Of a stretch of 20,000 nt of DNA, positions 591 through 18,354 are shown piece by piece. How positions within the stretch are numbered: the first letter of the stretch is position 1; each line of letters opens with the position of its first letter. The stretch covers positions 44,290 through 64,289 of the forward strand of contig JBDROZ010000053.1 in NCBI GenBank assembly GCA_043809585.1. The letters run 5' to 3'. The notes under the pieces were generated by a model. That model was not told the DNA's origin. It worked only from the letters and a program-made list of their open reading frames with translations, and made no database searches. The position numbers were made by a program, and so were the translations under genes. Source of the stretch: Candidatus Eiseniibacteriota bacterium (GTDB taxonomy: Bacteria; Orphanbacterota; Orphanbacteria; Orphanbacterales; Orphanbacteraceae).

Positions 591-1064
591 TCAGTCGCCC
601 GCCGCCAGGTCGTCCCAGTACGCCTGCTGGATGATCTCGTTCTCCTCCGATTCGTGCCGCTTCAGCGTGAAGATCAGCATCTTCGTGCGGAGGGTGAGCT
701 CCCGGATCTGGGCGTGCACCGGATCGGTGGTCGACCTCGCCACGTCGAGCAATCCCCGGAGCTCCTGAACGATATCCTTATGCTCGCCGAAGAGCCGCTC
801 CAAGGGCCGGGAGAACCGAGGAAACTCGATCGGTACGTCCCGGTAGAGAGGGCTTTTCTCCTCCCCCTCGAAGTGGGGGGGGAGAATCGCTACGAGCGGT
901 TCGAGCCGCTCCCGGAGACATTCGGTCCACGAGTGATGGCAGTCGGCCGGCTCGTCGAGCCACTGTTCGAGGTCGCCGACCATCTTCGAGATCTCCTTGT
1001 GTTCTTCGAACGCCGCCTCCGCTTCGGCCTTGGCGCTCTTCCGGGGGGCGCGATCCGTGTTCAT
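591..1064 (-). CDS. Hemerythrin (HHE cation-binding) domain protein
   Basis: Helical protein with EEH...HFEGEE...GEH...HESEEN di-iron ligand spacing. AGGAGG lies 10 nt before ATG 1064 (alternative start GTG 1073). Confidence 0.85.
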   Translation of the reverse strand: MNTDRAPRKSAKAEAEAAFEEHKEISKMVGDLEQWLDEPADCHHSWTECLRERLEPLVAILPPHFEGEEKSPLYRDVPIEFPRFSRPLERLFGEHKDIVQELRGLLDVARSTTDPVHAQIRELTLRTKMLIFTLKRHESEENEIIQQAYWDDLAAGD

Positions 1065-1104
1065 GTCGGTCACCCCTCCTTCCTTGGCCCGGTCTTTCCC
1101 GGGA

Positions 1105-1284
1105 TCACCGGTTCGACCGGATGCGCATCGCTCCGTCCCTCACCTCGGCGGCGGCGGGCGTCTCCTTGCGGACGCTGTTGCTGCCGCATTCCAGGCAGGT
1201 ACGCTCCTTCACTTCTTTCGCCTCCACCATCAAGGGAAACCGGCTCTGGCACCGGAGACAGTAGAAGGTCACCTCTTCGGCCAT
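1105..1284 (-). CDS. Small zinc-ribbon protein (59 aa, CxxC-x17-CxxC)
   Basis: MAEEVTFYCLRCQSRF...RTCLECGSNSVRK. Its ATG overlaps the hdrA stop (TGATG) and is preceded by GGGGAG. It is the real C-terminal end of track ORF 1105..2868. Confidence 0.75.
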   Translation of the reverse strand: MAEEVTFYCLRCQSRFPLMVEAKEVKERTCLECGSNSVRKETPAAAEVRDGAMRIRSNR

Positions 1285-3785
1285 CACGATTTCTCCCCGG
1301 CCGCCACGGCCTCGGCGCCGGCCGACTTCTCGGCCGCCTTCGCCTTCCGCTTCTCCGCCTTCTCCCGCCTCGCCTTCATGAACTCGCCGACGATTTCCTT
1401 CGTTTTCTCCACCTCTTCGGCGTTGACCTGCTTCAGGAGTTCGTCCATCTGGTTCATGACCCGGGCGAACTTGGAGCCCTCGGCGGCGCTGATCCACTCG
1501 AGCTGGAGACGCTCCGGCCGGATGCCGAGCTTCTCCATCTGGTTCCAGATCCGTTCGATCCGCTGCTGGGTCCACGTCACGGCGTCGATGTAATGGCAGT
1601 CCGTGAAGTGGCAGCCCGAGACGAGCACCATGGGGGCGCCCTTCTCGAAGGCGTGCCATATGAAATCCTCGTCCACCCGGCCCGAGCACATGGTTCGGAT
1701 CAGGCGGACCGACGGCGGGTACTGGAAGCGGCTCGTGCCGCACGTGTCTCCGCCCGCGTAGGAACACCAGTTGCACGCGAAGGCGACCACCTTCTCCATC
1801 GCCCTGTCCTCCAGGATCGCGTCGACCTGGCCGAGGATCTGGGGGTCCGTGAAGTGGCGCATGGTGATCGTGTCGTTCGGGCACTCGGCGGAGCAAGTCC
1901 CGCACCCGGAGCACGCCGCCTGGACCACCATGGGGAACAGGTTCAGTTTCTTGTCGGGCGCGGTAATCGCGTGGTACGGGCAGACCCGCGCGCACCGGCC
2001 GCACAGGTTGCAGTCGTCCCGAACGATCTCGGCGGTGATCGCCTCGATCTTCACATGGCCCGCCGCGAGGAGCGCCCCGGCGCGGGAGGCCGCGGCGGAG
2101 GCCTGGGTGACCGAGTCCTTCACGTCTTTCGGCGCCTCCACGCATCCGGCGAAGTAGACCCCCCGAGTGGGGGCGTCCACCGGCTTCAGCTTCGGGTGCG
2201 CCTCGAGCATGAAGCCGTCCGACGTGGACGAGAGGGCGAGCAGCTCCTTGACCTTGTTGCGTCCGTTCTTCCTCGGAACCATCCCGGTGGAGAGGACGAG
2301 CATGTCGAGCTCGTACTTCTCGAGTTCGCCGGTCAGGGTGTTCTCGACGGTGACCACGACGTTTCCCGTTTCCGTCTTCTGGACGACGTGGCCGGGAAGG
2401 CCGCGGACATATCTCGTCCCCGCCTCCCGGCTCCTCCGGTAGAGGTCCTCGAACCCCTTGCCGAAGGCCCGGATGTCCGTATAGAAGACGTGGCAGACGG
2501 CGTCCCGGTAGTGCTCGGAGATGAGCAGGGTCTGCTTCACCGTGTTCATGCAGCAGATGTTCGAGCAGTACGGTTGGGCCCTGGCGGGAGAGCGGGAGCC
2601 GACGCACTGCACGAAGCCGATCCGCTTCGGCGTCTTCCGGTCCGAGGGCCGGATCATGTGGCCGCCCGTCGGACCGCCGGCGCAGATCAGCCGCTCGAAC
2701 TCCATCGCCGTGATCACGTTCTCGAAACGGGTGTAGCCGTACTCGTCCTGGTCCCGCGGGTCGTACACCTCCATTCCCGTGGCGACGACGATGGTCCCCA
2801 CCTCGACGTCCAGGAACTTGTCCGTGTCGTCGAGGTCGATGCACTTCTTGTCGCATGCCTCGACGCACTTCCCGCAGGCGATCGGATCGTTACCCAGGCA
2901 GTTCACCATGTCCAGGGCGTAGGCCGACGGTACGGCCTGGGGGAAGGGGAGGTAGATCGCCTTGCGGGACGACAACCCCTGCTGGTACTCGTCGGGCACC
3001 ACTTGGGGGCACACCTTGGCGCATTCGCCGCAGTTGGTGCACTCGCTCTCGTTCACGTACCGGGCTTTCTTCCGGATCCGCGCCCGGAAGTTGCCGACGA
3101 AACCGGAAACCTCTTCGACCTCGGCGTTCGCGATCAGTTCAATCTTCGGATGTCGACCGACATCCATCATCTTGGGGCCGAGAATTCATATGGAGCAGTC
3201 CATCGTGGGGTACGTCTTGTCCAGTGCGGCCATGAGTCCCCCGATGGACGGATCCTTCTCGACCAGGTAGACCTGGTTTCCCAGGTCGGCGAGATCGAGA
3301 GCGGTTTGAATTCCGGCGACGCCGCCGCTGATGACGAGGGCCGCCCCGGTGACGGGGAAGGTGGCCTCCTCCTGGGCCTGGAGTTTCGTCGCCCGGGCGA
3401 CGGCGCTCCGGACCAGGTCCTTCGCCTTGTCCGTCGCCCCCCGGCGGTCGTTCTGGTGGACCCACGAGCAGTGTTCCCGGATGTTCGCCATCTCCATGAG
3501 GTACGGGTTGAGGCCCGCATCGGCGACGCACGCCCGGAACGTGGGCTCGTGGATCTTCGGCGTGCAGGAGGCGATGACCACGCGATCGAGGTCGTGCTCC
3601 CGGATGGCCGACTTGATTTCGTTCTGTCCCGGATCGGCGCATGTGTATCGATTGCGGACCACCGCGACGACGCCGGGGAGGGTCTCGGCGAACTTCGAGA
3701 CCTCGTCGGTGTTGACCGTGCCGGCGATGTTCAAACCGCAATCGCACACGAAGACCCCGATCCTGGGTAGCTTCTGCACCATCAT
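1284..3785 (-). CDS. hdrA: Heterodisulfide reductase subunit A-like flavoprotein fused to C-terminal MvhD; selenoprotein (Sec200, TGA 3186-3188), 833 aa
   Basis: The N-terminal part (RIGVFVCDCGLNIAG, SCTPKIHE, ANIREHCSWVH) reads in frame through LDKTYPTMDCSI-TGA-ILGPKMMDVGRHP into ORF 1284..3170. That ORF has inserted and C-terminal ferredoxin motifs, QCVGSR...YCSNICCM, and an MvhD domain (CNWCSY, MCSGRV, GCHFTDCHY, WISAAEG). The start overlaps the upstream stop (ATGA). Confidence 0.93.
3148..3165 (-). promoter_or_regulatory. Putative bacterial SECIS element
   Basis: mRNA GGAUGUC-GGUC-GACAUCC is a perfect 7-bp stem with a GGUC apical loop, beginning 20 nt 3' of the in-frame UGA. Confidence 0.8.
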
Positions 3786-4984
3786 TCGCCTCCTTCGGCC
3801 GGGGCGGCCGCCATGGATCGCATCAGGGCCCCGTCGATCAGGACGGTGAGGTCCTCGGTTTGCATCCGTTTCCGCATCGGAGCGGTGCCTCCCAGGCTCG
3901 CGCGGCGCTCGTCTTCCGCCTGGGCGCATTGAAAGTGGATCATGCACTTCGGGCATGCCGTCACGAGCGTGCCGGCGCCCGTCGCCCGGGCGTCGGCGAG
4001 CCGCATCGCCTGAAGAAGCCTCGACTCGGCGTCGCAGTGCTGGAACCCGGCGGTGCCGCAGCATCGGGAGCGGAGGCCCGACAGCTCCATCTCCCGGAGT
4101 TGCACGCCCGGCAGGGAGCGAAGGACCTCCCGGGGCTCGTCGAGCACCTCCAGGTGCCGGGCGAGACGGCACGGGTCCTGGTAGGTGACGGTCTTCGCCC
4201 CGCCGTTCCACTCCCCGGCCTCCAGGCCGAGTTCCTTCCCCCGCTCCGCGACGAAGGCGGCCATGTGGACCACCTTCGGCTTGAACCCGGGAATCACTTC
4301 CTTGTAAGACAGCGAGAGGGTTCTCGCGCACTCGGCGCAGGTCGTGACGATCGTCATCGCCCCGGTGCTCTCGATGAGCGTGACGTTCCTCTCCGCCAGC
4401 TTCCGGAAGCTCGCCGGGTCCCCCGCCCAGAGGAGATCGTGGCCGCAGCAGACCTCCTCCTCCCGGACCACCGGCTCGATGCCGAGCCGGTTCAGGATCC
4501 GCACAGCGGAGCGGGCGATCTCGACCATCTTTACGTCGAGGTCCGCGTACACCTTGTCGAAGAGGGGCAGGCAGCCCACGAAGAGCATCACCTCCCCCTC
4601 CTTCTTGACTTTCAGGTCGGGCGTCAGCCACGCGAGCCGGTCCGGCCGGGACCCGCCCTCCGCCTGCAGGCGGGTGGCCTGGGCGAGGATTTGGTGATGG
4701 GGGCACGAGGCCCTCTCCTCCGGAGGAAGGGCGGCCCGGGCGTGCCGGACGAAGTCGACGAACGCCACCCCTTCCGGACACCTCTGCTCGCACGCGCCGC
4801 AAGTGAGACACTGCCGGATCAGGATCCGGCCGTCCTCTTCGAGGTCCGCGAGCGCCCGCGCGACGAGGCGACGGGGCGAATGCCCGTGGCTCAGTTCGGC
4901 GAGGGGGCACATGCCCGTGCACTTCCCGCATCCGAGACAGAGCGTCGCCTTCGTGCGGCGTGCCAGTTGGTCCAGGGTCATCAT
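3782..4984 (-). CDS. HdrD/GlpC-like (Fe-S)-binding oxidoreductase (HdrC-like 2x[4Fe-4S] plus two CCG domains)
   Basis: CLGCGKCTGMCP, CLTCGACEQRCP; FVGC...VCCGHD...TTCAEC; YQDPCRLAR...RCCGTAG...TACPKC. ATGA overlaps at both ends. Confidence 0.9.
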   Translation of the reverse strand: MMTLDQLARRTKATLCLGCGKCTGMCPLAELSHGHSPRRLVARALADLEEDGRILIRQCLTCGACEQRCPEGVAFVDFVRHARAALPPEERASCPHHQILAQATRLQAEGGSRPDRLAWLTPDLKVKKEGEVMLFVGCLPLFDKVYADLDVKMVEIARSAVRILNRLGIEPVVREEEVCCGHDLLWAGDPASFRKLAERNVTLIESTGAMTIVTTCAECARTLSLSYKEVIPGFKPKVVHMAAFVAERGKELGLEAGEWNGGAKTVTYQDPCRLARHLEVLDEPREVLRSLPGVQLREMELSGLRSRCCGTAGFQHCDAESRLLQAMRLADARATGAGTLVTACPKCMIHFQCAQAEDERRASLGGTAPMRKRMQTEDLTVLIDGALMRSMAAAPAEGGE

Positions 4985-7287
4985 GATCCTTCTCCCACGG
5001 TGACCTTCACCATTTCATCGATCGGCAGGGGATCCCCCTCCCGTCCTTCGGACCAGTGGCTCCGAATCCGATCGGGATCGAGGCCGCAGAGACCCAGCAT
5101 CGACCGCGCCAGCTCCACCTGGTCGACGGCGAGGCCCGCCCCCGACTCGAAGCGGCACCGGTCCTCCGCGCATCCGGCGACCATGACCCGCCGGGCCCCG
5201 TTCAGAATCAGTTTGAGAATGGTCCCCGCCTCGAGCTGGCCGACGCAGGAAAGGCGGAGAACCTCCACGCCGTCGCCGACGCTCTCGGAGGTCGGGCTGA
5301 GGCAGCCGCCCCGCCGCTGGCAGGTGATGATCACGTTCTCCGCCACCTTCCGGCCGGGGGCCGCCCGGTCGAGAATCCAGTTCTTCGAAAACGGCTCGAT
5401 CTCCGCCGCGCCGGTTTGGCAGACCGACACGCAGAGTCCGCAGCCCCGGCACTCCGTCGCGTCGACGAGGCTCACGGGTTCGCCTTCGGGTCCCATGACG
5501 AGCCGGGGGGCGCCGAAGGCGCAAATCTCGACGCACCGCCCGCAACCGCGGCAGAGGGCCTGGTCGATCCGGGACTTCACGAGTCCCACGCTGACCGGCG
5601 AGGGGAACGTGCGCCCCTCCGACTTCGCCTCGAATATCGCCTTCGCTTCCTGAAGCCTCGCCTCGGCGGGCATCCCTTCCCGGGGCGTGCGGAGAAGAAG
5701 ATCCACCGCCGCCTCGCGGCCGTTGGCGCCCACGGCGCTCCGGATCAGCACGTGCCGGCGGGCGCAGGTGGGAACGCAGGTCTGGCACTCCGAGCACGGC
5801 CCGCACCGGAGACAGCGGGAGGCCTCTTCGATCGCTTCCAAGTCGGAAAGGGCGAACTCGACCTCTTCGAAATTGTTCCTGTCCGTGACGGGCCGCTCCG
5901 GGTGAGGGACCCGGGGACGCCGCTCCGGCGGCGTGTCGGCGAGACCGAGTTCCCACTGCCCGCCCCGCTTCGGGAAGATCCGGTCGAGCGACGCGGGCCC
6001 CTCTTCGACGAGGCGGCGGATGGCCTTCGCGGCCCGGTGCCCCGCGGCGATCGCCTCGATCACCGTAGCGGGTCCGGTGACGACGTCCCCGCCGGCGAAG
6101 ACCGCCGCAATCCTGGTCAGCCCCGTGTCGTCGGAGGCGACCAGGTTGCCGCTCCGGTCTGTGGAGGTGTCGTATTGCTGGCCGAGGAAGGGCAGGTACG
6201 GCTCCTGGCCGATGGAGGAGATGATGGCGTCCGCCCGGAGAACGAACTCGGAGCCCGAGACCGGGATCGGCCTCCGCCGCCCGCTCGCGTCCGGCTCGCC
6301 GAGCCGGACCTCGAGACACTCGAGGCCGGTCACCCGTCCGTTCTCCACCTTGAGCGCGTTCGGGGCGGTGAGGAACCGGATGCCGATCCCTTCCGCCTCC
6401 GCCGCCCGGATCTCCTCCTCCGCGGCGGGCATCTCTTCCTTCGACCGGCGGTAGACGATATCCGCGCTCTTGGAGCCGAGGCGGAGGGCCGTCCGCGCCG
6501 CGTCGATGGCCGAGCTGCCGCCGCCGATCACGAGGACCCGTTCGCCCACCGGCGTCCGGTCCCCTTCGTTGGCGCGCTTCAGGAACGCCAGGGCGTCCTC
6601 GACACCCTGGATCTCGTGCTCGCCGGGAAGGCCGAGGCGCCGGCTCTTCATGGCCCCCACGCCGACGAATATCGCCTTGTGTTCCGCCAGGAGGTCTTGG
6701 AGCCCCATGTCCCGGCCGAGGGCGACGCCGGTCTTCACCTCGATCGGCGCGCCGAGCATCTGTTCGATCTCCCGGTCCAGGATGTCGGGAGGCAGGCGGT
6801 AGTCGGGGATGCCGTAGCGGAGCATCCCGCCGAGCTGGCTTTCCGACTCGAGCAGCGTCACTCGGAATCCCTGCCGGGCGAGGTCGTAGGCGACCGTGAG
6901 TCCCGCCGGCCCCGAACCGACCACCGCGACCCTCTCGCTCCGCCAGGGGCGGGGGAGGGGAGGGGGCGCCGGCAGGCCGAGCCCGTAGTCGGCGACGAAC
7001 CGTTTGAGCGCGCGAATCGAAACGGCGCCGTCCACGTTGTTCCGGCGGCAGACCGACTCGCACGGGTGGTTGCACACGCGGCCGCAGACGCCGGGAAGGG
7101 GGCAACGCTCGCGCACCACGCCGAGGGCTTCGGCGAAGCGCCCCTCCGCGATGAGCGACACGTACGCCTTCACGTTGACGCCGGCCGGACAGGCGCCGGT
7201 GCAGGGGGACGGGCTGATCCTCTCGATGAGGAGCTCCGACCCCTTCTCGAAGGTCAGTTTCGCTTCCTCGATAATCGACAATTCCAT
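4981..7287 (-). CDS. GltD/NfnB/SudA-like FAD/NAD(P)H oxidoreductase fused to ferredoxin and MvhD-like domains
   Basis: PCTGACPAG...CGRVCNHPCESVC (GltD-type Fe-S); VAVVGSGPAG (FAD); VIGGGSSAIDAA...VYRRS (NADP-type site); FAGGDVVTGP; CLRCGPCSECQTCVPTC; CRGCGRCVEIC and CRGCGLCVSVC; then ITC...LSCVGQL...VAGCAEDRCRF (MvhD-like). Confidence 0.88.
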   Translation of the reverse strand: MELSIIEEAKLTFEKGSELLIERISPSPCTGACPAGVNVKAYVSLIAEGRFAEALGVVRERCPLPGVCGRVCNHPCESVCRRNNVDGAVSIRALKRFVADYGLGLPAPPPLPRPWRSERVAVVGSGPAGLTVAYDLARQGFRVTLLESESQLGGMLRYGIPDYRLPPDILDREIEQMLGAPIEVKTGVALGRDMGLQDLLAEHKAIFVGVGAMKSRRLGLPGEHEIQGVEDALAFLKRANEGDRTPVGERVLVIGGGSSAIDAARTALRLGSKSADIVYRRSKEEMPAAEEEIRAAEAEGIGIRFLTAPNALKVENGRVTGLECLEVRLGEPDASGRRRPIPVSGSEFVLRADAIISSIGQEPYLPFLGQQYDTSTDRSGNLVASDDTGLTRIAAVFAGGDVVTGPATVIEAIAAGHRAAKAIRRLVEEGPASLDRIFPKRGGQWELGLADTPPERRPRVPHPERPVTDRNNFEEVEFALSDLEAIEEASRCLRCGPCSECQTCVPTCARRHVLIRSAVGANGREAAVDLLLRTPREGMPAEARLQEAKAIFEAKSEGRTFPSPVSVGLVKSRIDQALCRGCGRCVEICAFGAPRLVMGPEGEPVSLVDATECRGCGLCVSVCQTGAAEIEPFSKNWILDRAAPGRKVAENVIITCQRRGGCLSPTSESVGDGVEVLRLSCVGQLEAGTILKLILNGARRVMVAGCAEDRCRFESGAGLAVDQVELARSMLGLCGLDPDRIRSHWSEGREGDPLPIDEMVKVTVGEGS

Positions 7288-7308: not shown

Positions 7309-7875
7309 TTAGGTGGCGGCCTCGGCGACGCCGCCGGCGACCTTCTCGCCATGGGCGAAGCCGCTGTCGAACGCCTCCAGGTTCAGTCCTTCGCTGCCCG
7401 GAGGCACCGACTCCTTGATCGCTTCCCGGGCCGCTTCCCGGTCGACGACTCCGGTGACGGCGGCGAGGAAGCCGCACATCACCATGTTCGCGGCGATGCG
7501 CCTCCCGAGCTTCTCCGCGATGCGCGTGGCCGGGACGGCGAAGACCCCCCCTTTCTCCTCCCCCTCGAGGTGCACCAGGTCTTCGTCGACGAGGAGCTTT
7601 CCGCCCGGCGCGAGTTCGCCGTGGAACTTGGAGTACGCCTCTTGGGACATGCAGATCACGACGTCCGGCCTCCGGATATACGGGTAGTCCACCGGATCGT
7701 CGGACAAGATGAGCTGGGCGCTGCAGGCGCTCCCCCGCGCCTCGGGCCCGAAGCTCTGGTTCAGCGTCGCGTGGCGGCCTTCCTTGATCGACACCGCCTT
7801 TCCCGTCACGTAGGCGAGGAAGATGATGCCCTGGCCGCCGAAGCCGGATACCCGGAGTTCCGTCCTCTTACTCAT
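7309..7875 (-). CDS. korC: 2-oxoacid:ferredoxin oxidoreductase gamma subunit
   Basis: MSKRTELRVSGFGGQGII...QSFGPEARGSACSAQL...ANMVMCG. The ATG overlaps the beta-subunit stop (ATGA). It is the C-terminal 188 aa of track ORF 7309..8712. Confidence 0.92.
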   Translation of the reverse strand: MSKRTELRVSGFGGQGIIFLAYVTGKAVSIKEGRHATLNQSFGPEARGSACSAQLILSDDPVDYPYIRRPDVVICMSQEAYSKFHGELAPGGKLLVDEDLVHLEGEEKGGVFAVPATRIAEKLGRRIAANMVMCGFLAAVTGVVDREAAREAIKESVPPGSEGLNLEAFDSGFAHGEKVAGGVAEAAT

Positions 7876-8828
7876 GCCTCGCCCCCCCGGTCGATCAAGG
7901 CCCGGCGGTCCGCCGGCCTCATGTAGTACTCCTTGTTCAGGCCGTATTCCTTCCCGAGGGCCCTCTGCATGCTCGCGTCGAGGTTGTCGAGGAAGGTCGG
8001 CTTCTCGATGTCCACGAACTTGCCGAGGGTGATCTTTCCGCCGAAATCGATGTCCACCGACGAGGGATCGGCGCCGTGCCTGATCTCGCTCTTCGTCCGG
8101 TAGTACTCGAGCACGTCGATCGACGTGCCGAGCTTGTTCCGCCTGGTGTAGAGCGTGGGGCAGGGCGCGATCACCTCGACGAAGGAGAATCCCGGCTTCT
8201 CCATCGCCTCGTGGATCGAGTTGGTCAGCCGGCGGACGTGGAGGGAGGTCCACCGGGCGACATAGACGGCGCCGCTCGACGCCGCGAGGCCGGGAAGGTT
8301 GAAGGGGTGCTCGAAATTGCCGTAGGGCGTGGTGGTCGACAGGGCGCCGACCGGCGTGCCCGGGCCGAGCTGGCCGCCCGTCATGGCGTAGTTGAAGTTG
8401 TTGATGCAGACGATGGTCAGGTCGATGTTCCGCCGGGCGGCGTGGATGAAGTGGTTGCCGCCGATGGCGATCAGGTCGCCGTCGCCGGAGATCACCACAA
8501 CCTTGAGCCTCCGGTTGGACAGATGGAGCCCGGTGGCGAAGGGGATCGCCCGGCCGTGGGTCGTGTGGAACGAGTCGAGTTTGACGTATCCCGCCACCCG
8601 TCCCGAACAGCCGATGCCGGAGACGACCGCCACCTTGTCCAGATCGTACGCCCCCTTCTTGAGGGCGTCGACGAAGCAGGTGACCACCGTCCCGATGCCG
8701 CATCCGGGGCACCAGATGTGGGGAATCCGGTCCATGCGGAGGAACGGCTCCATCGGGTGGTCGAGGGGGGCGGCCGCGCTCTCGCCCGCGCTCGGGGGCG
8801 CTTTCGTGGTCGATCGATCCTCACTCAC
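7872..8828 (-). CDS. korB: 2-oxoacid:ferredoxin oxidoreductase beta subunit (TPP-binding)
   Basis: WCPGCG, VSGIGCSGR, HTTHGRA, GDGD-x-NNFNYAMTGGQ, APCPT. The GTG start overlaps the korA stop and follows GAAGGAG. Confidence 0.93.
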   Translation of the reverse strand: MSEDRSTTKAPPSAGESAAAPLDHPMEPFLRMDRIPHIWCPGCGIGTVVTCFVDALKKGAYDLDKVAVVSGIGCSGRVAGYVKLDSFHTTHGRAIPFATGLHLSNRRLKVVVISGDGDLIAIGGNHFIHAARRNIDLTIVCINNFNYAMTGGQLGPGTPVGALSTTTPYGNFEHPFNLPGLAASSGAVYVARWTSLHVRRLTNSIHEAMEKPGFSFVEVIAPCPTLYTRRNKLGTSIDVLEYYRTKSEIRHGADPSSVDIDFGGKITLGKFVDIEKPTFLDNLDASMQRALGKEYGLNKEYYMRPADRRALIDRGGEA

Positions 8829-10045
8829 GATGCCTTCTCCTTCCGCGGCCGCTTCTTGCCCGTCGCCGTCGCGGCTTTCTTCGCCTTTCCCTTCGCTCCC
8901 CCCTTGATGGCGTCGTAGATTCGTTCCGGGTCGTGCACCCATCCGCCGGCATGGCTGACCGGAATCACCGCCGCCCGTCCCCCCGCGTTCCTCTCCACCT
9001 CGAGGACGATCTGGCCGAGGTTGATCTCGGGCACCACGAATGCGTTCACTTTCGGGGCCAGGTCGCGGATCAGCCTCTCGGGGAACGGCCAGACCGTGAC
9101 GAGCCGGATCTCGCCCACCTTGTATCCGTCGGCGAGGGCGGCGTCGATGGCGGCCCGGGCGACCCGGGAAGTGATTCCGTAGCTAATCACGACGACGTCG
9201 GCGCCGTCCAGACGGGCCGTTTCGACGTCGATGATCTTGTCCGCGTTGTCGTCGATCTTCGACCGGAGACGGCGCACGAGCTTGTCCTGGACCTCCGCCG
9301 TCATGACCGGGTAACCCCGCTCGTCGTGGGTGAGGCCGGTGGTGTGGATCTTGTACCCCTCGCCGGCCATGATCATGTCCGGGACCTGATCCCCGTTGGT
9401 GGCGTAGGGCAGGTACTCGCCCGGCGGGAGGGAGGTGATCCGCCGCGGGACGATCTCGATTTCGTCCGCGCTCGGGATGACCACCTTCTCCGTCATGTGG
9501 CCGACGCACTCGTCCATCATCACGAGGACCGGGACGCGCCATGTCTCGGACAGGTTGAACGCCTGGATCGTGCGGTCGAAGCACTCCTGGGGGGAGTTCG
9601 GGGCGAGGGCGATGATGCTGTAGTCTCCGTGGGATCCCCAGCGGGCCTGCATCATGTCCTGCTGGCCCACCATGGTCGGAAGGCCGGTGGACGGACCGCC
9701 CCGCTGAACGTTCACCAGGACGCAGGGGACCTCCATCATGATGCCGAGCCCGAGGTTCTCCATCATCAGGGAGAAGCCGGGTCCGGACGTGCACGTCATG
9801 GCCTTGACCCCTCCCCAGGCGGCGCCGAGGATCGCGGCCATGGAGGCCATCTCGTCTTCCATCTGGATGAACACGCCCCCCACCTTGGGGAAGCGCCGCG
9901 CGATCCGCTCGGCGATCTCCGTGGACGGAGTGATGGGATAGCCCGCGAAGAACCGGCAGCCCGCGGCGAGTCCGCCTTCGGAGGCGGCATGGTCGCCGTC
10001 GAGGTAGTGGGCGCCGGTGAGGACTCCTTCCGGGGCGGCGGTCAT
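8825..10045 (-). CDS. korA: 2-oxoacid:ferredoxin oxidoreductase alpha subunit
   Basis: AGYPITPSTEI, QMEDEMAS, TSGPGFSLMME, QRGGPSTGLPT, RWGSHGD, VPEINLGQ. Confidence 0.95.
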   Translation of the reverse strand: MTAAPEGVLTGAHYLDGDHAASEGGLAAGCRFFAGYPITPSTEIAERIARRFPKVGGVFIQMEDEMASMAAILGAAWGGVKAMTCTSGPGFSLMMENLGLGIMMEVPCVLVNVQRGGPSTGLPTMVGQQDMMQARWGSHGDYSIIALAPNSPQECFDRTIQAFNLSETWRVPVLVMMDECVGHMTEKVVIPSADEIEIVPRRITSLPPGEYLPYATNGDQVPDMIMAGEGYKIHTTGLTHDERGYPVMTAEVQDKLVRRLRSKIDDNADKIIDVETARLDGADVVVISYGITSRVARAAIDAALADGYKVGEIRLVTVWPFPERLIRDLAPKVNAFVVPEINLGQIVLEVERNAGGRAAVIPVSHAGGWVHDPERIYDAIKGGAKGKAKKAATATGKKRPRKEKAS

Positions 10046-10412: not shown

Positions 10413-11006
10413 TTACGGCTTAGTCGTCCTCCGCGCCTGCTCATAGGGACAACGCCCGGTCACCCCGTGGACGGGGCAACCGTCTTCATAGAAGGCCCCG
10501 CAGCGCAGACAGCCGCGGCCACCTTGCTCCTCTATGTCGATCAATGTTGTGACGAACTTGGTGAGGAGCCGGGCGAACTCCTCTCGTTCTTCTTCGCTGA
10601 ACGTCTCGAGCACCGGGCGGAGGCCGGTCGCCCGCCGCTCTTCGTAGCGGCGGACGAGGTCGCGCCCTTTCGCGGTGATCTTCAGGCAGGTGTTCCTCCT
10701 GTCCTTTTCGGGCGTCACCCGCCTGAGAAGATCGAGACGGGCGAGTTTGTCGACGTTCTTAGAGGCGGCAGGCGCGCTCACCCCGAGAAAATCGGCCACC
10801 TCGCCGACGAAGTGATCCCCGTTCATGTCGATCAACTTGAGAAGATGGATCTGCGAGAGGGAGAGAGGAGCGGGAGCGGTCTCGCGGAGATACCGGGACT
10901 CGAGAATGTCCCGGACGGCGTTGGCGAAGACGTGGCTGATCTTCAGGATACGCTGGGCTACGGGGCCGCCGTCGCCGTTGGTCGGGCCGTGGGTAGGTTG
11001 GATCAT
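10413..11006 (-). CDS. MarR-family transcriptional regulator with C-terminal four-Cys extension
   Basis: Winged helix LSLSQIHLL...VGEVADFLGVSAPAASKNVDKL...DRRNTCLKITAKG; tail CLRCGAFYEDGCPVHGVTGRCPY. GGAGAG precedes ATG 11006, while the track's ATG 11045 lies inside the predicted -10. Confidence 0.88.
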   Translation of the reverse strand: MIQPTHGPTNGDGGPVAQRILKISHVFANAVRDILESRYLRETAPAPLSLSQIHLLKLIDMNGDHFVGEVADFLGVSAPAASKNVDKLARLDLLRRVTPEKDRRNTCLKITAKGRDLVRRYEERRATGLRPVLETFSEEEREEFARLLTKFVTTLIDIEEQGGRGCLRCGAFYEDGCPVHGVTGRCPYEQARRTTKP

Positions 11007-11044
11007 GGCCACTCTCCGAATTAGAGTTGCTTTCGAACGTCCCA

Positions 11045-11094
11045 TTTATACCATGGAGACATTGGTGAATCCACTTAAAAATTAACCCGATTAA
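11045..11094 (-). promoter_or_regulatory. Putative promoter of the marR-kor-hdr operon with adjacent palindromic operator
   Basis: TGGATT (11068-11073) -17 nt- TATAAA (11045-11050) with an extended TG; TTAA-N5-TTAA at 11082-11094 in a conspicuously AT-rich gap. Confidence 0.45.
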
Positions 11095-11327: not shown

Positions 11328-14300
11328 TTGCCCCGTCTGCTCGATACCTTTGCGATGCTGGGGGTTCTCTTTGTTCTGGCCGCGCCGGATCGGGGATCCG
11401 GGGCGGTTCCCGCTCCGCCCCTTCCGGGGGTCTCCGGGGTGCGGGGGTTCCCGGCGGCGGGCCCCCCCTCGCCGCGGGCGGACAAGAGGTTCGACCCGTC
11501 GGCGGCGGCGGACACGTTCCGGGTCGTCGCGCTTCTCGTCCAGTTCCCCCCCGACGACGATCCGTCGACCACGGGGAACGGCCTTTTCGGCGACGTGCCC
11601 GACGCGAACGAAGTGGTCTTCGGCGATTCTTACCCCGAGCTGCTGGAGATCCCCCGGGATCCGGAGTACTTCCGCGAGCAACTCCGCTATCTCTCCCAGT
11701 ACTGGAGCGTGGTCTCCGGCGGCCGCCTCGAGATCGTCGCCACCGTTCCGGAGACGGTCTTCACCGCCCCCGAACCGATGGCGTATTACGGAGAGAACGA
11801 AGAGGCGAGCCGCCGGCAGTCGGCCCTCTTCCGGGACGCCGTCCGGCTCGCCGACGGGGCGGTCGACTTCGCCGACTTCGACGGTGTCTTCGTCTACCAC
11901 GCCGGCTGCGGCGAGGAGACGGATGTTCTCGGCGATTCACCCGGCGACATCTGGACCGCCTTCCTGACCCGCGCCGACTTCGTTGACGCCTTCGCCGATT
12001 CGGGTTTCGAGGAGGCCTACCGGGGTATCCCGACCGGCGACACCGACGAGGGGGGGGACACGCTCTTCCTGACCGAAGGCGTCGTGTTTCCCGAGAGCGA
12101 GACCCAGGACGAGATCGGCGGGTCGATTCTCGCCCAGTGGATTCTCGGCGTCTCGGCCCACATGACCGGCCGCCTTCTCGGCGCCCCTTCTCTCTTCGAC
12201 ACGGACCTCCGCGACGGCTCCTCATCTCAAGGCATCGGCAACTTCGGCATCATGGGGACCGGGCTCTGGAACTCGGGCGGCATCCTTCCTCCGCACCCCT
12301 GCCCGTGGACCAAGATCTTCTTCGGATGGACCGAGCCTCTGACCGTGACGAGGGACACGACGATCGCGCTTCCCCCCGTGGAGAAGGGGGACTCGTCTCC
12401 GAGGATCGTGAAGGTCCCGATCACCGAGACCGAGTACTGGCTGATCGAGAACCGGGCGAAGGACGAGAACGGCGACGGCGACTTCAATTTCGACGACAAG
12501 AACGGGGACAACGTGCTCTATCCCTTCGAAGACTCGTACGAAGGGGCCGAGTTCGACTGGTCTCTGCCGAGCGAGGGGAGCATCGAGGGGGCGGGCATCC
12601 TCATCTGGCACGTGGACGAGTCGGTGATCGCCGCGTCGGGTGACTTCCGGGAGCGGAACACGGTGAACGCCGACGCCTCGTGGAAGGGGGTCGACCTCGA
12701 GGAGGCGGACGGGATCCAGGACCTCGATCTCCGGGCGACGTCCTTCGACAACTTCGGCTCGCCCCTCGACAGTTGGACCTCCTCGAACGGCGGCGTCTTC
12801 GGGCCCGCCACCACCCCCTCCACGATGTCGAACTTCGGCGCGGCGACGGGCGTCACGATCACGGTCGAGTCGGAGCCGGGAAGTCTCATGACCGTGTCGA
12901 TCGACTTCGATGACGGCCGCCCGGACGGATGGCCGGTGATCGGCCCCCGGGGGAGACGATTGATCGGACCGGTCGCGCCCGCCAAGGCCGGGGATCTCGG
13001 TCTCTTCGGCTTCGCCTTCGCCTCCTTCGATTCGATGGAGGGCTTGAGCCGTCTCGGAGTGATCGGCGCGGACGGCGCGCCGTGGCCCGGCTTCCCCGTG
13101 GATCTCCCCGGCAGGCCTTCGTTCGGGCCGGCCGCCCATCGGGCGGCCCCCGACGGCCCCCTCGCCCTTCTCGTCCCGATGGAGGACGGCGGCGTTCTCC
13201 GGGTCTTCTCCGACGGGGCGATCGACACCACCGGCGCATGGGGCGATCCGGTTCCGGGCGCGTCGGGTTCCTTCCTTTCGGCCTCTCCCGGGGGGGGCGC
13301 GGCCTTCTCCCTCGTGGAGGTGGATGGTACGACTCGGGTCTATCTCTACGACGGCTTCGCGGGGGGCGTGCGGACCCTCCTCGCCGAAACGGAAGGGGCC
13401 GCGGTGGGCCCGGCGGCGATCACGTCCTATGGGAGCGCGGTCTTCGCCACCGGCGCTTCGAGGGTGTTCGAGGTCAGGGGTTCGGAAGTGATCTGGGAGG
13501 GGAGCACCCGTGAAGAACCGGTGGCCCTCGCCATCGGCGACGCCCCCCGCGGCGGGCCCGCGGACGACGAAGTCGATCTTTGGGAGACGGTGGTCTCCAC
13601 GGGGGGCGGTCTGGAGATTTTCGACTCCCGGGGCTCTCCGGTCCCGATCGCCGTCGCCGGCCTCTCGGGGCCCGCCGGTCCCTCCGCCCTGGCCGATCTC
13701 GACCGGGACGGGTTCGCCGAGTACCTCGCCGGGAGCCCGGGCCGGATGAACGCCATCAACCGGACGGGGGCCCCGTCCACGGACTGGCCGATCCGTCTCG
13801 CCGGCGGCCCGCCGTCGCACCCTCTCGACCGGGCCGAGGGTTCGCCCGCCGTCGCCGATTTCGACGGCGACGGGGAATCGGATGTCGCGTTCCTGACCGA
13901 ACACGGAAGCCTCTGGATCGTGGATGCCGGCGGCGTCCCCTGGCCGGGGTTCCCGGCGGCGGCCCCGGGGAGAAACCGGTACGGCCTCCTCGCGGGAACC
14001 ACCCTCTCCGGCGACAGCACGTATCTCCTCCTTCCCGGCGAAGGGGGAAACCTCGATCTCCGGGTCTGGCCGACGCCGGGGGGCGCGCGGGTCGATTGGG
14101 CGGGGTACGGGAACGGGGCGGGATTCGCGGGGCGCTATCTCGGATCCTCCGACACCCCGTCGCCGGGCCCTTCGCTTCTCGCTCCGGACGAGACCTTCTG
14201 CTACCCGAACCCGGTCCGGGGGGAGGGGCTCGTGAAGATCCACTTCCGCCTGACCGAGGCGGCGGAAGTGAGCGTATCGATCTACCACACCGCCGGGGGA

Positions 14301-14459
14301 GTGGTCGAGGAGTTCCCCCGGGCTCTCTTCCCCGCCGAAACGGGCGAGGTCGTCTGGGACACGCGGGAGACGGGAAGCGGGGTCTACTACGCCCGGATCG
14401 AGGCCCGCTCCGCTACCCGGGAAGAGGTCCGGTTCGTCCCGATCGCCGTGCTACGCTGA
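11328..14459 (+). CDS. Secreted M6 (immune inhibitor A)-like protein with degenerate active site, FG-GAP-like repeats and T9SS type A-like C-terminal domain
   Basis: Signal peptide; VVALLVQFP, VYHAGCGEE, GNFGIMGTG...PPHPCPWTK...GW, EYWLIENR, GILIWHVDE, VDLEEADG; ADLDRDG and ADFDGDG repeats; YPNP...WD...SGVYY...AVLR end. TTG start after GGAGGAGG. Confidence 0.85.
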   Translation: MPRLLDTFAMLGVLFVLAAPDRGSGAVPAPPLPGVSGVRGFPAAGPPSPRADKRFDPSAAADTFRVVALLVQFPPDDDPSTTGNGLFGDVPDANEVVFGDSYPELLEIPRDPEYFREQLRYLSQYWSVVSGGRLEIVATVPETVFTAPEPMAYYGENEEASRRQSALFRDAVRLADGAVDFADFDGVFVYHAGCGEETDVLGDSPGDIWTAFLTRADFVDAFADSGFEEAYRGIPTGDTDEGGDTLFLTEGVVFPESETQDEIGGSILAQWILGVSAHMTGRLLGAPSLFDTDLRDGSSSQGIGNFGIMGTGLWNSGGILPPHPCPWTKIFFGWTEPLTVTRDTTIALPPVEKGDSSPRIVKVPITETEYWLIENRAKDENGDGDFNFDDKNGDNVLYPFEDSYEGAEFDWSLPSEGSIEGAGILIWHVDESVIAASGDFRERNTVNADASWKGVDLEEADGIQDLDLRATSFDNFGSPLDSWTSSNGGVFGPATTPSTMSNFGAATGVTITVESEPGSLMTVSIDFDDGRPDGWPVIGPRGRRLIGPVAPAKAGDLGLFGFAFASFDSMEGLSRLGVIGADGAPWPGFPVDLPGRPSFGPAAHRAAPDGPLALLVPMEDGGVLRVFSDGAIDTTGAWGDPVPGASGSFLSASPGGGAAFSLVEVDGTTRVYLYDGFAGGVRTLLAETEGAAVGPAAITSYGSAVFATGASRVFEVRGSEVIWEGSTREEPVALAIGDAPRGGPADDEVDLWETVVSTGGGLEIFDSRGSPVPIAVAGLSGPAGPSALADLDRDGFAEYLAGSPGRMNAINRTGAPSTDWPIRLAGGPPSHPLDRAEGSPAVADFDGDGESDVAFLTEHGSLWIVDAGGVPWPGFPAAAPGRNRYGLLAGTTLSGDSTYLLLPGEGGNLDLRVWPTPGGARVDWAGYGNGAGFAGRYLGSSDTPSPGPSLLAPDETFCYPNPVRGEGLVKIHFRLTEAAEVSVSIYHTAGGVVEEFPRALFPAETGEVVWDTRETGSGVYYARIEARSATREEVRFVPIAVLR

Positions 14460-15492: not shown

Positions 15493-16260
15493 TCAGTCCT
15501 CCCAGCGTTTCAGCTCGAGCTTCCCTTCCCGGAGCACCGCGTAGGTAAAAGTCTCCATCCAGTCGCCGAGAACCAAACACTCCCCTTCCTCGTAGGTGAA
15601 GCGGTCGGCCACGTGGATGTGGCCCATCACGATCCCGTCGAAGCCCTCCCGGAGCTTGTCGAGGATCGCGCTTTCGAGGGTGCGGTTCAGTATGAACTTC
15701 TTCCGGTTGCTGTAGCTCCGGCTCCGGTGGGAGGCCCAGCGGGCGAACGGAATCCCGATGTCGGGATGAATCCAATGGTACGCCCGGATGGCCCAGGAAC
15801 TGCGGACGAGGCGCCGGAGAAAGCGGTACCCCGGGTCGCGGCCGGCCGTCAGGTCGTCGCCGTGGGTGACGTAGAGCCGCCGCCCCTGGGTCTCGAGGAT
15901 CACGGACTCCCGGCGGATTCGGAGGCCGACGGTGCGGCTGAAGAATTCGCCGATCCAGTAGTCATGGTTGCCCGCGAGGTAGACGACCTCGACGCCGCTC
16001 CGGACGAGCCCGGCGAGCCCCGTGAAGATGACCGTGTGTGTCTTCGGGAGCACCTGGGAGTACTCGAACCAGAAGTCGAAGAGATCGCCGACGATGTAGA
16101 GCGTGCCGGCTTCTTTCCGGGCGAGGGCGAGAAAACGGAGAAAACGTTCCACCCGTTCCCGTTCCTTCTCCGATCCCGCCGCGCCGAAGTGGGCGTCGGA
16201 CACGAAGAAGACCACGCCCTCCCGGCCCTCTCCGGCGGCCGATTTCTTCGCTTCCGACAT
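15493..16260 (-). CDS. lpxH: UDP-2,3-diacylglucosamine diphosphatase (LpxH-like metallophosphoesterase)
   Basis: SDAHFG, VGDLFDFWFEY, GNHDYW, THGD, MGHIH, LGDW. It is the C-terminal 255 aa of track ORF 15493..17616. Confidence 0.82.
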   Translation of the reverse strand: MSEAKKSAAGEGREGVVFFVSDAHFGAAGSEKERERVERFLRFLALARKEAGTLYIVGDLFDFWFEYSQVLPKTHTVIFTGLAGLVRSGVEVVYLAGNHDYWIGEFFSRTVGLRIRRESVILETQGRRLYVTHGDDLTAGRDPGYRFLRRLVRSSWAIRAYHWIHPDIGIPFARWASHRSRSYSNRKKFILNRTLESAILDKLREGFDGIVMGHIHVADRFTYEEGECLVLGDWMETFTYAVLREGKLELKRWED

Positions 16261-16267
16261 GGCTGGC

Positions 16268-16296
16268 ATGGTAGCATTCGCCCGGAAGCCGGGCAA
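16268..16296 (-). promoter_or_regulatory. Sigma70-type promoter, probably giving a leaderless lpxH mRNA
   Basis: TTGCCC -17 nt- TACCAT with an extended TG, ending 7 nt before ATG 16260; no SD sequence. Confidence 0.55.
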
Positions 16297-16368
16297 GAGA
16301 ATCGCCCGGCGCCCGCCGGTGCGAGGATGAGCGGATTCTCGAATCCGCGGTGGAGAGGAGAAGAGGCG

Positions 16369-16833
16369 ATGGAAGAGCGCAAGGAGACGGAAGATGCGCG
16401 GGAGACCGCAGGGGAAAGAGGCACCGGCAAGGCCGGGCCGGGCGAAGGAGCGCCAGGGGCCGGCGACCACACGTTTTCGGGTGATCCCTACCGAGAGGAT
16501 CCCGGACTCTGGGACAAGGTGAGGCGCGGGGCGGTGGAGGGGTATCACTTCGCCGCCGACAAGACGGATCTCTATGCCCGCGTGGCGAGCCGGCGGATGA
16601 GCATCCTCGGCTTGAATCGGAAGATCGACCACGCTTACGCGGAGCTGGGCGAGAAGACCTATAACCTCCTCGCCGCGGACGAGAACGCGGCGGTGGCGGC
16701 GGATACGGCGGTGCGGGAACTCGTCGGGCGGATCCGGGCCTCCGAGGAAGAGATGACGCTGAAGGAGGCGGAAATCGAAGAGATCCGCCAGGAGTACCGG
16801 GAACGCGCCGCCGCGGCGAAGGAAGAGGAGTAA
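16369..16833 (+). CDS. Hypothetical coiled-coil protein (154 aa)
   Basis: GAGGAG/AGAGG upstream of ATG; helical LWDKVRRG...AYAELGEKTY...EAEIEEIRQE; stop lies 3 nt before degP. Confidence 0.75.
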   Translation: MEERKETEDARETAGERGTGKAGPGEGAPGAGDHTFSGDPYREDPGLWDKVRRGAVEGYHFAADKTDLYARVASRRMSILGLNRKIDHAYAELGEKTYNLLAADENAAVAADTAVRELVGRIRASEEEMTLKEAEIEEIRQEYRERAAAAKEEE

Positions 16834-16836
16834 GGG

Positions 16837-18354
16837 ATGATCATGGGGCGGATCCGCCGGAACCGGTGGCTCGACCGGGCGTGGGTGGCGGGGCTCGGCG
16901 TGTGTTGCGGTCTTCTGATCTCGGCCAACTGCAAGTGGACCCCCTCGTCGAACGCGGGGGACCGGTCCGGGCCCGCGCCGGCGTCCGCCCCCTCGGATCT
17001 CCGGCTCCCCCCGCCCCCCGCCGGGAAGGGGGGGGTCGCGGTGGGCACATTCGAGTCTCCCTTCGTGGCCGTGGCCGAGCGGGTGCAGGAGGCGGTGGTG
17101 AACGTGAACACCCGGAAGACCTTCGAGCACCCGCCGATTCCCGGGTGGGGGGATGATCCGCTCCGCGATCTTCTTCCGGAGATGGACGGTCCCATGGACG
17201 TCCCGTCGAGCGCGTCGGGCTTCGTCTTCGACGAACGGGGTTACGTGATCACCAACAACCACGTGATCCAGGACGCCGAGGAGGTCATGGTCACTTTCAT
17301 GGACGGCCGGGAATTCGCCGCCGACGTGGTGGGCGTCGATCCGAGCACGGACGTGGCGGTGCTCCGGATCGAGGGGGGAGAGCCCTTCCCGGTCCTCCCC
17401 CTCGGCGATTCGGAGCGGATCCGCGTCGGCGATTGGGCGATCGCCGTCGGTAACCCGTTCGGGTATCTCCAAGGGACCGTCACGGTCGGCGTGATCAGCG
17501 CGAAAGGGCGGGCCGATCTGGACATCGCCGGCGGGACTCCCGTCTACCAGAACTTCATCCAGACCGACGCGTCGATCAACTTCGGCAACTCCGGGGGGCC
17601 CCTCGTCGATATCCACGGCGAGGTGATCGGCGTCAACACGGCCATCAACCCTTCGGGCCAGGGGATCGGCTTCGCGATTCCCATCAATCTCGCGAAGCGG
17701 ATCGCCGGCGAGTTGATCGCGAGCGGCCGGGTGATCCGGGCGTATCTCGGCGTCTATCCCCAGGAGCTGACGCCGGAGATCGTCGAGGCGAAGGGCCTCG
17801 GATCGATCCGGGGGATTCTCGTCGGGCAGGTGGTGCCGGGCGCGCCGGCCGAACGGGGGGGGCTCGAGCGGGGCGACGTCATCCTCTCCTTCGACGGCGT
17901 GGAGACGGGCGACGTCGCCCGGTTCCGGATGGTCGTCGCCGACAGCGAGGTCGGCACGGACGTGGAGATGGTGTACATGCGGGACGGCGAGCGGCGGACG
18001 GCGACGGTCCGTCTCGCCGAGCGCCCCGATGTGGCCGCCGCGGCGGAGCGGCCGGGGCCCGAGGAGTCGTGGCTCGGCCTCAACGTGGTCGAACCCGCGG
18101 AGGAGCCCGACGCGGTTCGCGCCCTCGGTCTCGAAGGGGAAGCGGGAGTGCTCGTCTCCGGCGTCGAACGGGGGAGCCCCGCATGGCGCGCCGGCCTCCG
18201 GGCGGGCGATCTCATCCAGGAGATCGACGACCGGGTCGTGGATGGTCTCGGCGGCTACGGCGACGCGCGCCGGGCGCTCAGGAACCGGGAAGACCCGATC
18301 ATGTTCCTCGTCCTCCGGGGAGGCTTCACCCAGTACCTGGCGGTGCGCCCCTGA
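16837..18354 (+). CDS. degP: HtrA/DegP-DegQ family serine endoprotease with two PDZ domains
   Basis: TNNHV, TDVAVL, QTDASINFGNSGGPL catalytic triad; two PDZ domains; N-terminal hydrophobic segment. Confidence 0.93.
   Translation: MIMGRIRRNRWLDRAWVAGLGVCCGLLISANCKWTPSSNAGDRSGPAPASAPSDLRLPPPPAGKGGVAVGTFESPFVAVAERVQEAVVNVNTRKTFEHPPIPGWGDDPLRDLLPEMDGPMDVPSSASGFVFDERGYVITNNHVIQDAEEVMVTFMDGREFAADVVGVDPSTDVAVLRIEGGEPFPVLPLGDSERIRVGDWAIAVGNPFGYLQGTVTVGVISAKGRADLDIAGGTPVYQNFIQTDASINFGNSGGPLVDIHGEVIGVNTAINPSGQGIGFAIPINLAKRIAGELIASGRVIRAYLGVYPQELTPEIVEAKGLGSIRGILVGQVVPGAPAERGGLERGDVILSFDGVETGDVARFRMVVADSEVGTDVEMVYMRDGERRTATVRLAERPDVAAAAERPGPEESWLGLNVVEPAEEPDAVRALGLEGEAGVLVSGVERGSPAWRAGLRAGDLIQEIDDRVVDGLGGYGDARRALRNREDPIMFLVLRGGFTQYLAVRP

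Follow-up and report, generated by a model that had tools for sequence, protein, structure and literature searches.

A conserved bacterial SECIS-type hairpin follows a probable selenocysteine UGA codon in an HdrA2-type gene of a Candidatus Eiseniibacteriota bacterium

A 20,000-nucleotide stretch of DNA from a Candidatus Eiseniibacteriota bacterium (hereafter, the window) carries on its minus strand an hdrA-mvhD fusion gene of the HdrA2 type, interrupted by an in-frame UGA. This UGA is very probably a genuine selenocysteine (Sec) codon, served by a functional bacterial Sec insertion sequence (bSECIS) within one intact gene (3785..1284), as judged from the comparison of sequences. The reading frame, the position of the codon in alignments, the Sec machinery of the host, and the conservation and covariation of the hairpin are directly established. 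The appropriate annotation is accordingly a single selenoprotein of 833 residues in place of two open reading frames (ORFs) or a pseudogene. Bacterial Sec-containing HdrA is already known, and the protein described here is an ordinary member of a selenoprotein family already in the literature.

The hdrA gene, its in-frame UGA and the Sec machinery

From position 3200 onward, the minus strand reads GAC TGC TCC ATA TGA ATT CTC GGC CCC AAG ATG ATG. Translation of 3785..1287 with TGA read as U gives a single open frame of 833 residues that contains only one U, at position 200, in the context DCSIUILGPKMM. This translation and a re-reading of the DNA confirmed the coordinates, frame, spacing and numbering ("Sec200 of 833") proposed in an earlier reading made from the letters and their ORFs (the sequence-only reading). 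ORF calling with translation table 11 splits the frame into ORFs 3186..4931 and 1284..3170, which that reading had joined into one HdrA-MvhD protein. The joining is supported by the 833-residue frame and by matches to two chains of known structure, HdrA (PDB 5odc_A; residues 6–661, E 1.4e-231) and MvhD (PDB 5odc_D; residues 664–780, E 6.9e-38). No defect other than the TGA was found across the 833 codons, and the G+C content at third codon positions (GC3) is 0.86 before the TGA, 0.84 after it and 0.91 over the whole gene. TGA is the ordinary stop codon of six of the eight minus-strand genes called (all eight lie in the first 11 kb), hdrA among them, and it is therefore not globally reassigned in the host. 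Among all TGA triplets of the window with 80 open codons on each side, no second Sec site with coding-type GC3 on both flanks was found in a real gene frame; three plus-strand sites with high GC3 (4695, 5651, and 5903) were rejected as candidates, being antisense to minus-strand genes.

The read-through protein belongs to the NCBIfam family NF040770, "CoB-CoM heterodisulfide reductase HdrA2" (1140.7 bits against a cut-off of 1100; residues 8–792 on model positions 1–776 of 777). The name HdrA2 derives from the HdrA-MvhD fusion of Methanosarcina acetivorans. Pfam searches with the 833-residue protein identified FlpD, the MvhD domain (2.5e-45, residues 666–787), several Fer4/4Fe-4S families and a weak match to Pyr_redox_2. 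The protein thus has an HdrA core, comprising a FAD/thioredoxin-reductase-like domain with N-terminal and ferredoxin Fe-S domains, fused to MvhD. Residues 109–211 align without gaps to residues 106–208 of 5odc_A, and U200 therefore falls on Cys197 of that chain. Its place is the last position of a CxxU motif (DCSIU, residues 196–200), equivalent to archaeal Cys197/Sec197, so that the sequence-only reading was right to expect the TGA to align with a Cys or Sec of HdrA. According to the respective reports, in the HdrA dimer, Cys197 of one HdrA is a trans ligand of the N-terminal Fe-S cluster of its partner HdrA (PMC9012536), and Methanococcus maripaludis HdrA carries Sec197, for which a Cys-Sec redox pair between the FAD and the N-terminal cluster was proposed and the role stated to be unresolved (PMC13518236). 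The function of this residue is still debated (PMC13518236; PMC9012536).

The source genome (G000; 123 contigs, 97.47% complete, with the window on contig C53) contains the full set of Sec genes for which the sequence-only reading had proposed a search, all scoring above curated or gathering cut-offs. These are a full-length selB (358.8 bits against 242.25; model positions 2–577 of 581), selA (535.4 bits against 267.9), selD (361.4 bits against 125) and selC, the gene for tRNA-Sec (73 bits against a gathering score of 47), which ARAGORN also calls as tRNA-SeC with the anticodon tca. The selD gene itself contains a single in-frame TGA, located where the N-terminal G-U motif is expected; counting hdrA, the organism therefore has at least two selenoproteins, and their SECIS elements differ. 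The hairpin that follows the TGA of selD is longer than that of hdrA and has a 3-nt CAG apical loop.

The hairpin and its conservation in UGA and cysteine loci

The perfect hairpin that the sequence-only reading had placed 20 nt past the UGA is present (Table 1) and lies within the coding sequence, where it encodes M-D-V-G-R-H-P. It was compared with the bSECISearch consensus as summarized in the legend to Fig. 2 of PMC13188914, and it agrees with all four constraints given there; a bSECISearch run had been among the checks proposed in the sequence-only reading. The apical loop (3–9 nt in the model) has 4 nt, and the upper stem (4–16 bp) consists of 7 Watson-Crick pairs. The loop GGUC supplies the required G within the first two loop positions (G, then G or U), the distance from UGA to loop (16–37 nt) is 27 nt, made up of the 20-nt spacer and the 7-nt 5′ arm, and the minimum free energy (−7.5 kcal/mol or lower) is −10.9 kcal/mol. 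This energy was calculated for the 20-nt hairpin alone, and 1 of 200 shuffled sequences was equally stable. The SECIS of Escherichia coli fdhF likewise lies in the ORF just 3′ of the UGA and, as the sequence-only reading had remarked, has a GGUC apical tetraloop; in NC_000913.3, however, this loop starts 18 nt past the TGA rather than 27 nt, and the stem sequences are unrelated.

Two sets of loci were collected for comparison. A search of 61 genomes (the source genome and 60 relatives) gave 19 genomes with a match at E ≤ 1e-100, and a search of GTDB representative genomes with six peptide patterns contributed the best 80 of 577 confirmed stretches, whose depositor labels include Gemmatimonadota, Acidobacteriota, Calditrichota, KSB1, Zixibacteria, Ignavibacteria, classes of Chloroflexota, Planctomycetota, Marinimicrobia, and others. 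The combined 110 loci (L022–L131) include seven without a match to the site motif, some of them truncated or distant (L029, L036–L039, L048, and L050). Among the remaining 103, the site codon is TGA in 85, the window included, and TGC or TGT in 18. In the register of the window hairpin, at least six of the seven pairs are formed in 82 of the 85 TGA loci compared with 2 of the 18 Cys loci. All seven pairs with a GGTC loop were found in 67 TGA loci and six pairs with this loop in 13, which brings the GGUC loop to 80 of 85; one further locus has seven pairs with a GGTA loop, one (L101) has six pairs with an AGTC loop, and three (L049, L051, and L119) have five pairs or fewer. No Cys locus has all seven pairs, two have six, and the GGTC loop occurs in one, at any degree of pairing. 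At L049, L051, L119 and L101, alternative hairpins with a G within the first two loop positions occupy the same place. L049 and L051, both from one genome (G040), represent a subfamily of 41% identity with the motif ECSIUILSPK, and their shifted hairpin has an AGGU loop. Some genomes carry multiple or adjacent hdrA-like genes with in-frame TGA; in one region of about 7 kb (G011:C1:74293-81613), three hdrA-like matches were found (L025, L046, and L050), one of them with two TGA codons.

The retention of the hairpin in UGA-bearing homologues, on which the sequence-only reading had made its interpretation depend, and its loss in Cys homologues are most evident at synonymous sites. In the 41 TGA loci that encode MMDVGRH, the codons GAT, GTC, GGT and CAT are used in 41 of 41, and Arg is encoded by CGA in 35, CGG in 5 and AGG in 1. 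The same peptide is encoded by seven Cys loci in which the hairpin is lacking, and there the codons are mixed: GAC in five and GAT in two; GTG in four, GTA in two and GTT in one; four different codons for Gly; and CAT in four and CAC in three. Fixed codons in one group and mixed codons in the other, for an identical peptide, indicate that synonymous sites are frozen only where UGA must be recoded; the Cys orthologues that keep the peptide and lose the hairpin thus provide a clean natural control for selection on the RNA. These seven loci (L073, L077, L081, L090, L094, L113, and L128; site at approximately 3577–3636 in the locus) bear the depositor labels Chloroflexota/Dehalococcoidia, retain three to six of the seven stem pairs, and all have Val in place of Ile after the Cys. 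They look like cases of Sec-to-Cys conversion followed by decay of the SECIS.

Covariation was evaluated in an alignment (A1) of 84 of the 85 TGA stretches, one identical 60-mer being omitted. In this alignment, 96.3% of the cells are paired under the stated structure, compared with 20.9–57.3% when the partners are slid, and the covariation score is 0.135 against 0.074 ± 0.009 in shuffled alignments, none of 500 of which scored as high. The stem pair 29–36 is U-A in 44 sequences, C-G in 30, G-U in 7, and unpaired or other in 3; the change from U to C converts Val to Ala and is matched on the opposite arm by a synonymous change from CGA to CGG. In 84 of the 84 aligned sequences, the UGA is followed directly by an A that opens a codon for Ile (AUH; columns A4 and T5 are invariant; window 3185..3183), and the closest Cys forms have GUN (Val) where the TGA forms have Ile. 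This invariant A/Ile may reflect a context requirement for recoding.

Contigs assembled from four public sequencing runs (X1, X2, X3, and the RNA library X10) were also aligned to the window. No alternative letter at 3186..3188 is listed in them, third codon positions around the TGA vary (3174, 3177, 3180, 3183, 3189, 3192, and 3195), and one X3 contig of 323 nt spans 3163..3277 with 0 differences. The TGA is therefore seen in assembled data from other runs or relatives. Contigs from these metagenome and metatranscriptome runs pile up on 3131..3214, with a summed depth of up to 823 compared with single digits in many other bins; across organisms, no DNA in the gene is more conserved than the Sec codon with its SECIS.

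Recoding, rival explanations and known Sec-HdrA proteins

Under the interpretation favored here, the hairpin, with its apical loop 27 nt past the UGA, would bind SelB carrying GTP and Sec-tRNA(Sec) as the ribosome nears the UGA, and SelB would deliver Sec at codon 200 in competition with release factor 2. Since the hairpin is made from codons for Asp-Val-Gly-Arg-His-Pro, constraints on protein and RNA are superimposed on the same nucleotides. U200 would take the place of archaeal HdrA Cys197, the trans ligand of the N-terminal [4Fe-4S] cluster of the partner. The actual insertion of selenium, the binding of SelB, and the role of the residue are what we infer from the comparisons described above.

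If the TGA were a true stop, the locus would encode two separate polypeptides, of 199 residues and of 628 residues (from the ATG at 3170), which would be assembled post-translationally into a split HdrA. The table 11 calls yield exactly the two ORFs of such a split gene, an ATG-ATG pair lies five codons past the TGA, and public proteins of 627–628 residues that start with MMD[VA]GRHP exist (P0010 and P0090). The split would, however, hit exactly the residue that corresponds to Cys197/Sec197, and because the frame is continuous, neither a ribosome-binding spacer nor an intergenic one is present. A stop at the same codon in 85 loci, with a hairpin kept at synonymous sites only in the company of TGA, is unexpected for a simple gene split, and the short database proteins are the expected output of a gene caller unaware of Sec; a divided HdrA is therefore considered extremely improbable. 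It is hardly credible that the gene is a pseudogene or that a TGC or TGT was turned into TGA by an error of sequencing or assembly. TGA is one base away from either codon and the assembly is fragmented, but 84 further loci, whose labels place them in many different phyla, carry TGA here as well, the rest of the 833 codons is intact, the contigs of the four runs list no variant at the site, and the Sec machinery is complete.

A further alternative accepts read-through of the UGA, with an amino acid that is not, or not always, Sec: Cys inserted through the Sec pathway when selenium is scarce, or Trp or Cys inserted by a near-cognate tRNA. Cys insertion at Sec codons has been reported in other systems. 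The sequence cannot tell which residue is inserted, and Cys forms of the protein evidently function, as they occupy 18 of the 103 motif loci and 118 of the 120 best database matches. Against this stand the dedicated SECIS-type hairpin, the complete selA/selB/selC/selD set, and the TGA-bearing selD, which point to regular Sec decoding, and such read-through is considered very unlikely as the explanation of this gene.

Several observations reduce the weight of the evidence for Sec decoding. In its sequence context the hairpin is no more stable than shuffled sequences (z 0.01 for 49 nt and 0.19 for 66 nt); in a window with 67% G+C, folding energy by itself has no discriminating power. A perfect 7-bp hairpin that agrees with the bSECIS rules for loop and spacing follows 5 of the 389 TGA trinucleotides of the window (any frame, both strands), and the hairpin alone is thus roughly a 1-in-80 occurrence (about 1.3%), which is suggestive and not decisive. 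No Rfam family matched window 2900..3400 at E values up to 10 with permissive filters, and the hairpin is therefore filed under the generic bSECIS model and not under an Rfam family. Real covariation is confined to one stem pair (29–36), part of the sequence conservation reflects protein constraint, since the hairpin overlaps a conserved peptide, and one of the six retrieval patterns, KMMDVGRH, is the hairpin-encoded peptide itself, which enriches for the peptide and not for its codons. The loci compared are related to each other, so that the shuffle statistics overstate their independence. The four runs were compared at 85% likeness as assembled contigs and not as raw reads; no run reached a share of one half of the sampled words, the highest values being 0.32, 0.26, and 0.23, and one run may be the source sample. 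The decisive evidence for the hairpin is comparative, not thermodynamic.

Sec-containing HdrA proteins have been described repeatedly in bacteria. A survey published in 2006 counted 16 bacterial HdrA selenoproteins and lists HdrA among the selenoproteins of Syntrophobacter, Syntrophus, Desulfotalea, Syntrophomonas, Carboxydothermus, Desulfotomaculum, and Moorella, with Syntrophobacter fumaroxidans, Syntrophus aciditrophicus and Moorella thermoacetica as named examples (PMC1794560). Sec-containing HdrA1, HdrA2 and HdrL, co-located with mvhD, were reported in Desulfobacterium autotrophicum (PMC2702500), and Table 1 of a 2026 review lists [quoted passage not shown] (PMC13188914). As described in these sources, the known bacterial forms share with the window gene an in-frame UGA, a bacterial-type SECIS, an anaerobic-type redox operon, and MvhD and GlpC/HdrD-like neighbors. 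The deltaproteobacterial operons have the order glpC-hdrA-frhD-frhG-frhA with hydrogenase subunits, whereas the neighbors in the window are a GltD/NfnB-like flavoprotein and a 2-oxoacid:ferredoxin oxidoreductase; the GlpC-like neighbor in the window also differs from those operons, as far as they are described there, in having no in-frame TGA. The Sec-HdrA of the M. maripaludis Hdr-Vhu-Fwd assembly resembles the window protein in subunit, residue and CxxU motif, and likewise has N-terminal Fe-S, thioredoxin-reductase-like FAD and ferredoxin domains (PMC13518236). The archaeal SECIS is described as lying outside the coding region (PMC13188914), whereas the window hairpin is within the ORF, 20 nt past the UGA. 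In further contrast to Methanococcales, MvhD is fused to HdrA in the window, a fused HdrD/GlpC-like partner stands in place of the separate HdrB and HdrC, and a Pfam scan identified no hydrogenase genes in the window. Because bacterial Sec-HdrA, the CxxU site and the bSECIS rules have all been published, the scientific gain from this gene is small.

The consequences for annotation are more practical. The window protein shares the HdrA-MvhD architecture of NF040770, whose full-length database members at 62–67% identity mostly carry Cys where the window protein would carry Sec. Of the 120 best database proteins, 118 are full-length (804–865 residues, 62–67% identical) with Cys at the site, followed by Val-Leu in 113 and Ile-Leu in 5, and NCBI gives several of them the name HdrA2. 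P0010 (85% identity, 628 residues) and P0090 (83%, 627 residues), the closest two, begin at the first ATG after the UGA. Gene callers unaware of Sec therefore do split the gene, as the sequence-only reading had claimed for standard pipelines, inasmuch as Prodigal-type protein sets cut both of these at the UGA, and metabolic reconstructions can miss an intact HdrA. The same reading had called the selenocysteine "hidden", which holds for ab initio callers and not for curated annotation, for which the family model NF040770 exists. The NCBI pipeline is able to annotate Sec in curated families.

The redox gene row and the remainder of the window

A row of genes on the same strand starts with a MarR-family regulator and has hdrA-mvhD as its last large gene (Table 1). 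The two 2-oxoacid:ferredoxin oxidoreductase genes sit immediately upstream of the GltD/NfnB-like gene. Overlaps of four bases each join the last three redox genes, and the HdrD/GlpC-like gene is translationally coupled to hdrA through such an overlap, the ATG of hdrA at 3785 overlapping the stop codon of the gene upstream. The GltD/NfnB-like flavoprotein, which scores 493.6 bits against the NCBIfam model PRK12771 (NAD(P)-binding protein), under the cut-off of 516, is probably the electron-input subunit. Only two MvhD domains were found in the source genome, both within the window. The domain content of the operon partners suggests a soluble flavin-based electron-bifurcating disulfide reductase linked to NAD(P)H and ferredoxin.

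Table 1. Features of the window, with selD of the source genome
Feature	Coordinates	Strand	Basis
Hemerythrin-domain protein, directly downstream of hdrA	591..1073	−	Pfam 5.1e-10
hdrA-mvhD fusion gene (HdrA2 type)	1284..3785	−	833 codons + TGA stop at 1286..1284; read-through translation, domain and family matches
Predicted bacterial SECIS hairpin, 7-bp stem GGAUGUC/GACAUCC, apical tetraloop GGUC	3165..3148	−	Folding, conservation, covariation
Spacer from UGA to hairpin, 20 nt, coding ILGPKM(M)	3185..3166	−	Sequence reading
UGA codon, probably read as Sec (U200), final residue of CxxU motif DCSIU	3188..3186	−	In-frame, alignment, homologues
HdrD/GlpC-like Fe-S subunit (4Fe-4S dicluster + two CCG domains), 400 aa	3782..4984	−	Pfam CCG 3.5e-27 + Fer4 families
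GltD/NfnB-like NAD(P)H flavoprotein + ferredoxin + MvhD domain, 768 aa	4981..7287	−	Pfam Pyr_redox_2 3.6e-28, Fer4_20 1.2e-22, FlpD 4e-15
2-oxoacid:ferredoxin oxidoreductase, two genes	7309..8712 and 8825..10045	−	Pfam POR 4.7e-36; POR_N 1.4e-71 + PFOR_II
MarR-family regulator, head of gene row	10413..11045	−	Pfam MarR_2 3.7e-11
HtrA/DegP-like protease	16837..18351	+	Trypsin_2 2.5e-35 + PDZ domains
selD (locus L010)	G000:C19:30755-31678	+	Family match

A bolder interpretation is that HdrA2(Sec)-MvhD, the HdrD/GlpC-like protein and the NfnB/GltD-like-MvhD protein form an uncharacterized soluble bifurcating or confurcating complex linking NAD(P)H, ferredoxin and a disulfide, and that its gene carries an 18-nt, near-invariant, family-specific SECIS across more than 10 differently labelled phyla; this combination is conceivable and rather doubtful. 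If it were true, a hairpin so nearly identical from phylum to phylum would suggest that the gene and its recoding signal were transferred laterally together, and a model of the 18-nt SECIS could rescue many split HdrA2 genes in metagenomes. The closest named relative of the source lineage is labelled Gemmatimonadetes. In tblastn searches, a match to the HdrD-like protein was found in 67 of 80 related loci, mostly upstream of hdrA, some of the loci being short of upstream flank, and long upstream matches to the GltD-like gene were found in about a dozen of the 80. A count of 71 of 80 loci was rejected as a measure of conservation of the GltD-like partner, many of the underlying matches (locus coordinates approximately 4700–5300) being of the ferredoxin/MvhD part of the query to the C-terminus of HdrA itself rather than to a neighboring gene.

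The product of the hemerythrin-domain gene that directly follows hdrA may be a partner with a role in O2 or redox sensing or in protection. A copy with 72% identity also follows hdrA in the closest named locus (L052).

The ORFs in the 11–20 kb region have only weak Pfam matches or none, apart from the HtrA/DegP-like protease gene and the domain mentioned below. For a 1043-residue plus-strand ORF (11328..14456), only FG-GAP repeats and a C-terminal sorting domain of type IX secretion gave matches, weak and below the cut-off, and Pfam recognized nothing in the minus-strand ORF 12225..14288 that competes with it. A long minus-strand ORF shares its 5′ part with the HtrA/DegP-like gene (region 15493..18354); the sole domain of this ORF (Metallophos) lies in its C-terminal third, so that its true start is probably well downstream of 17616.

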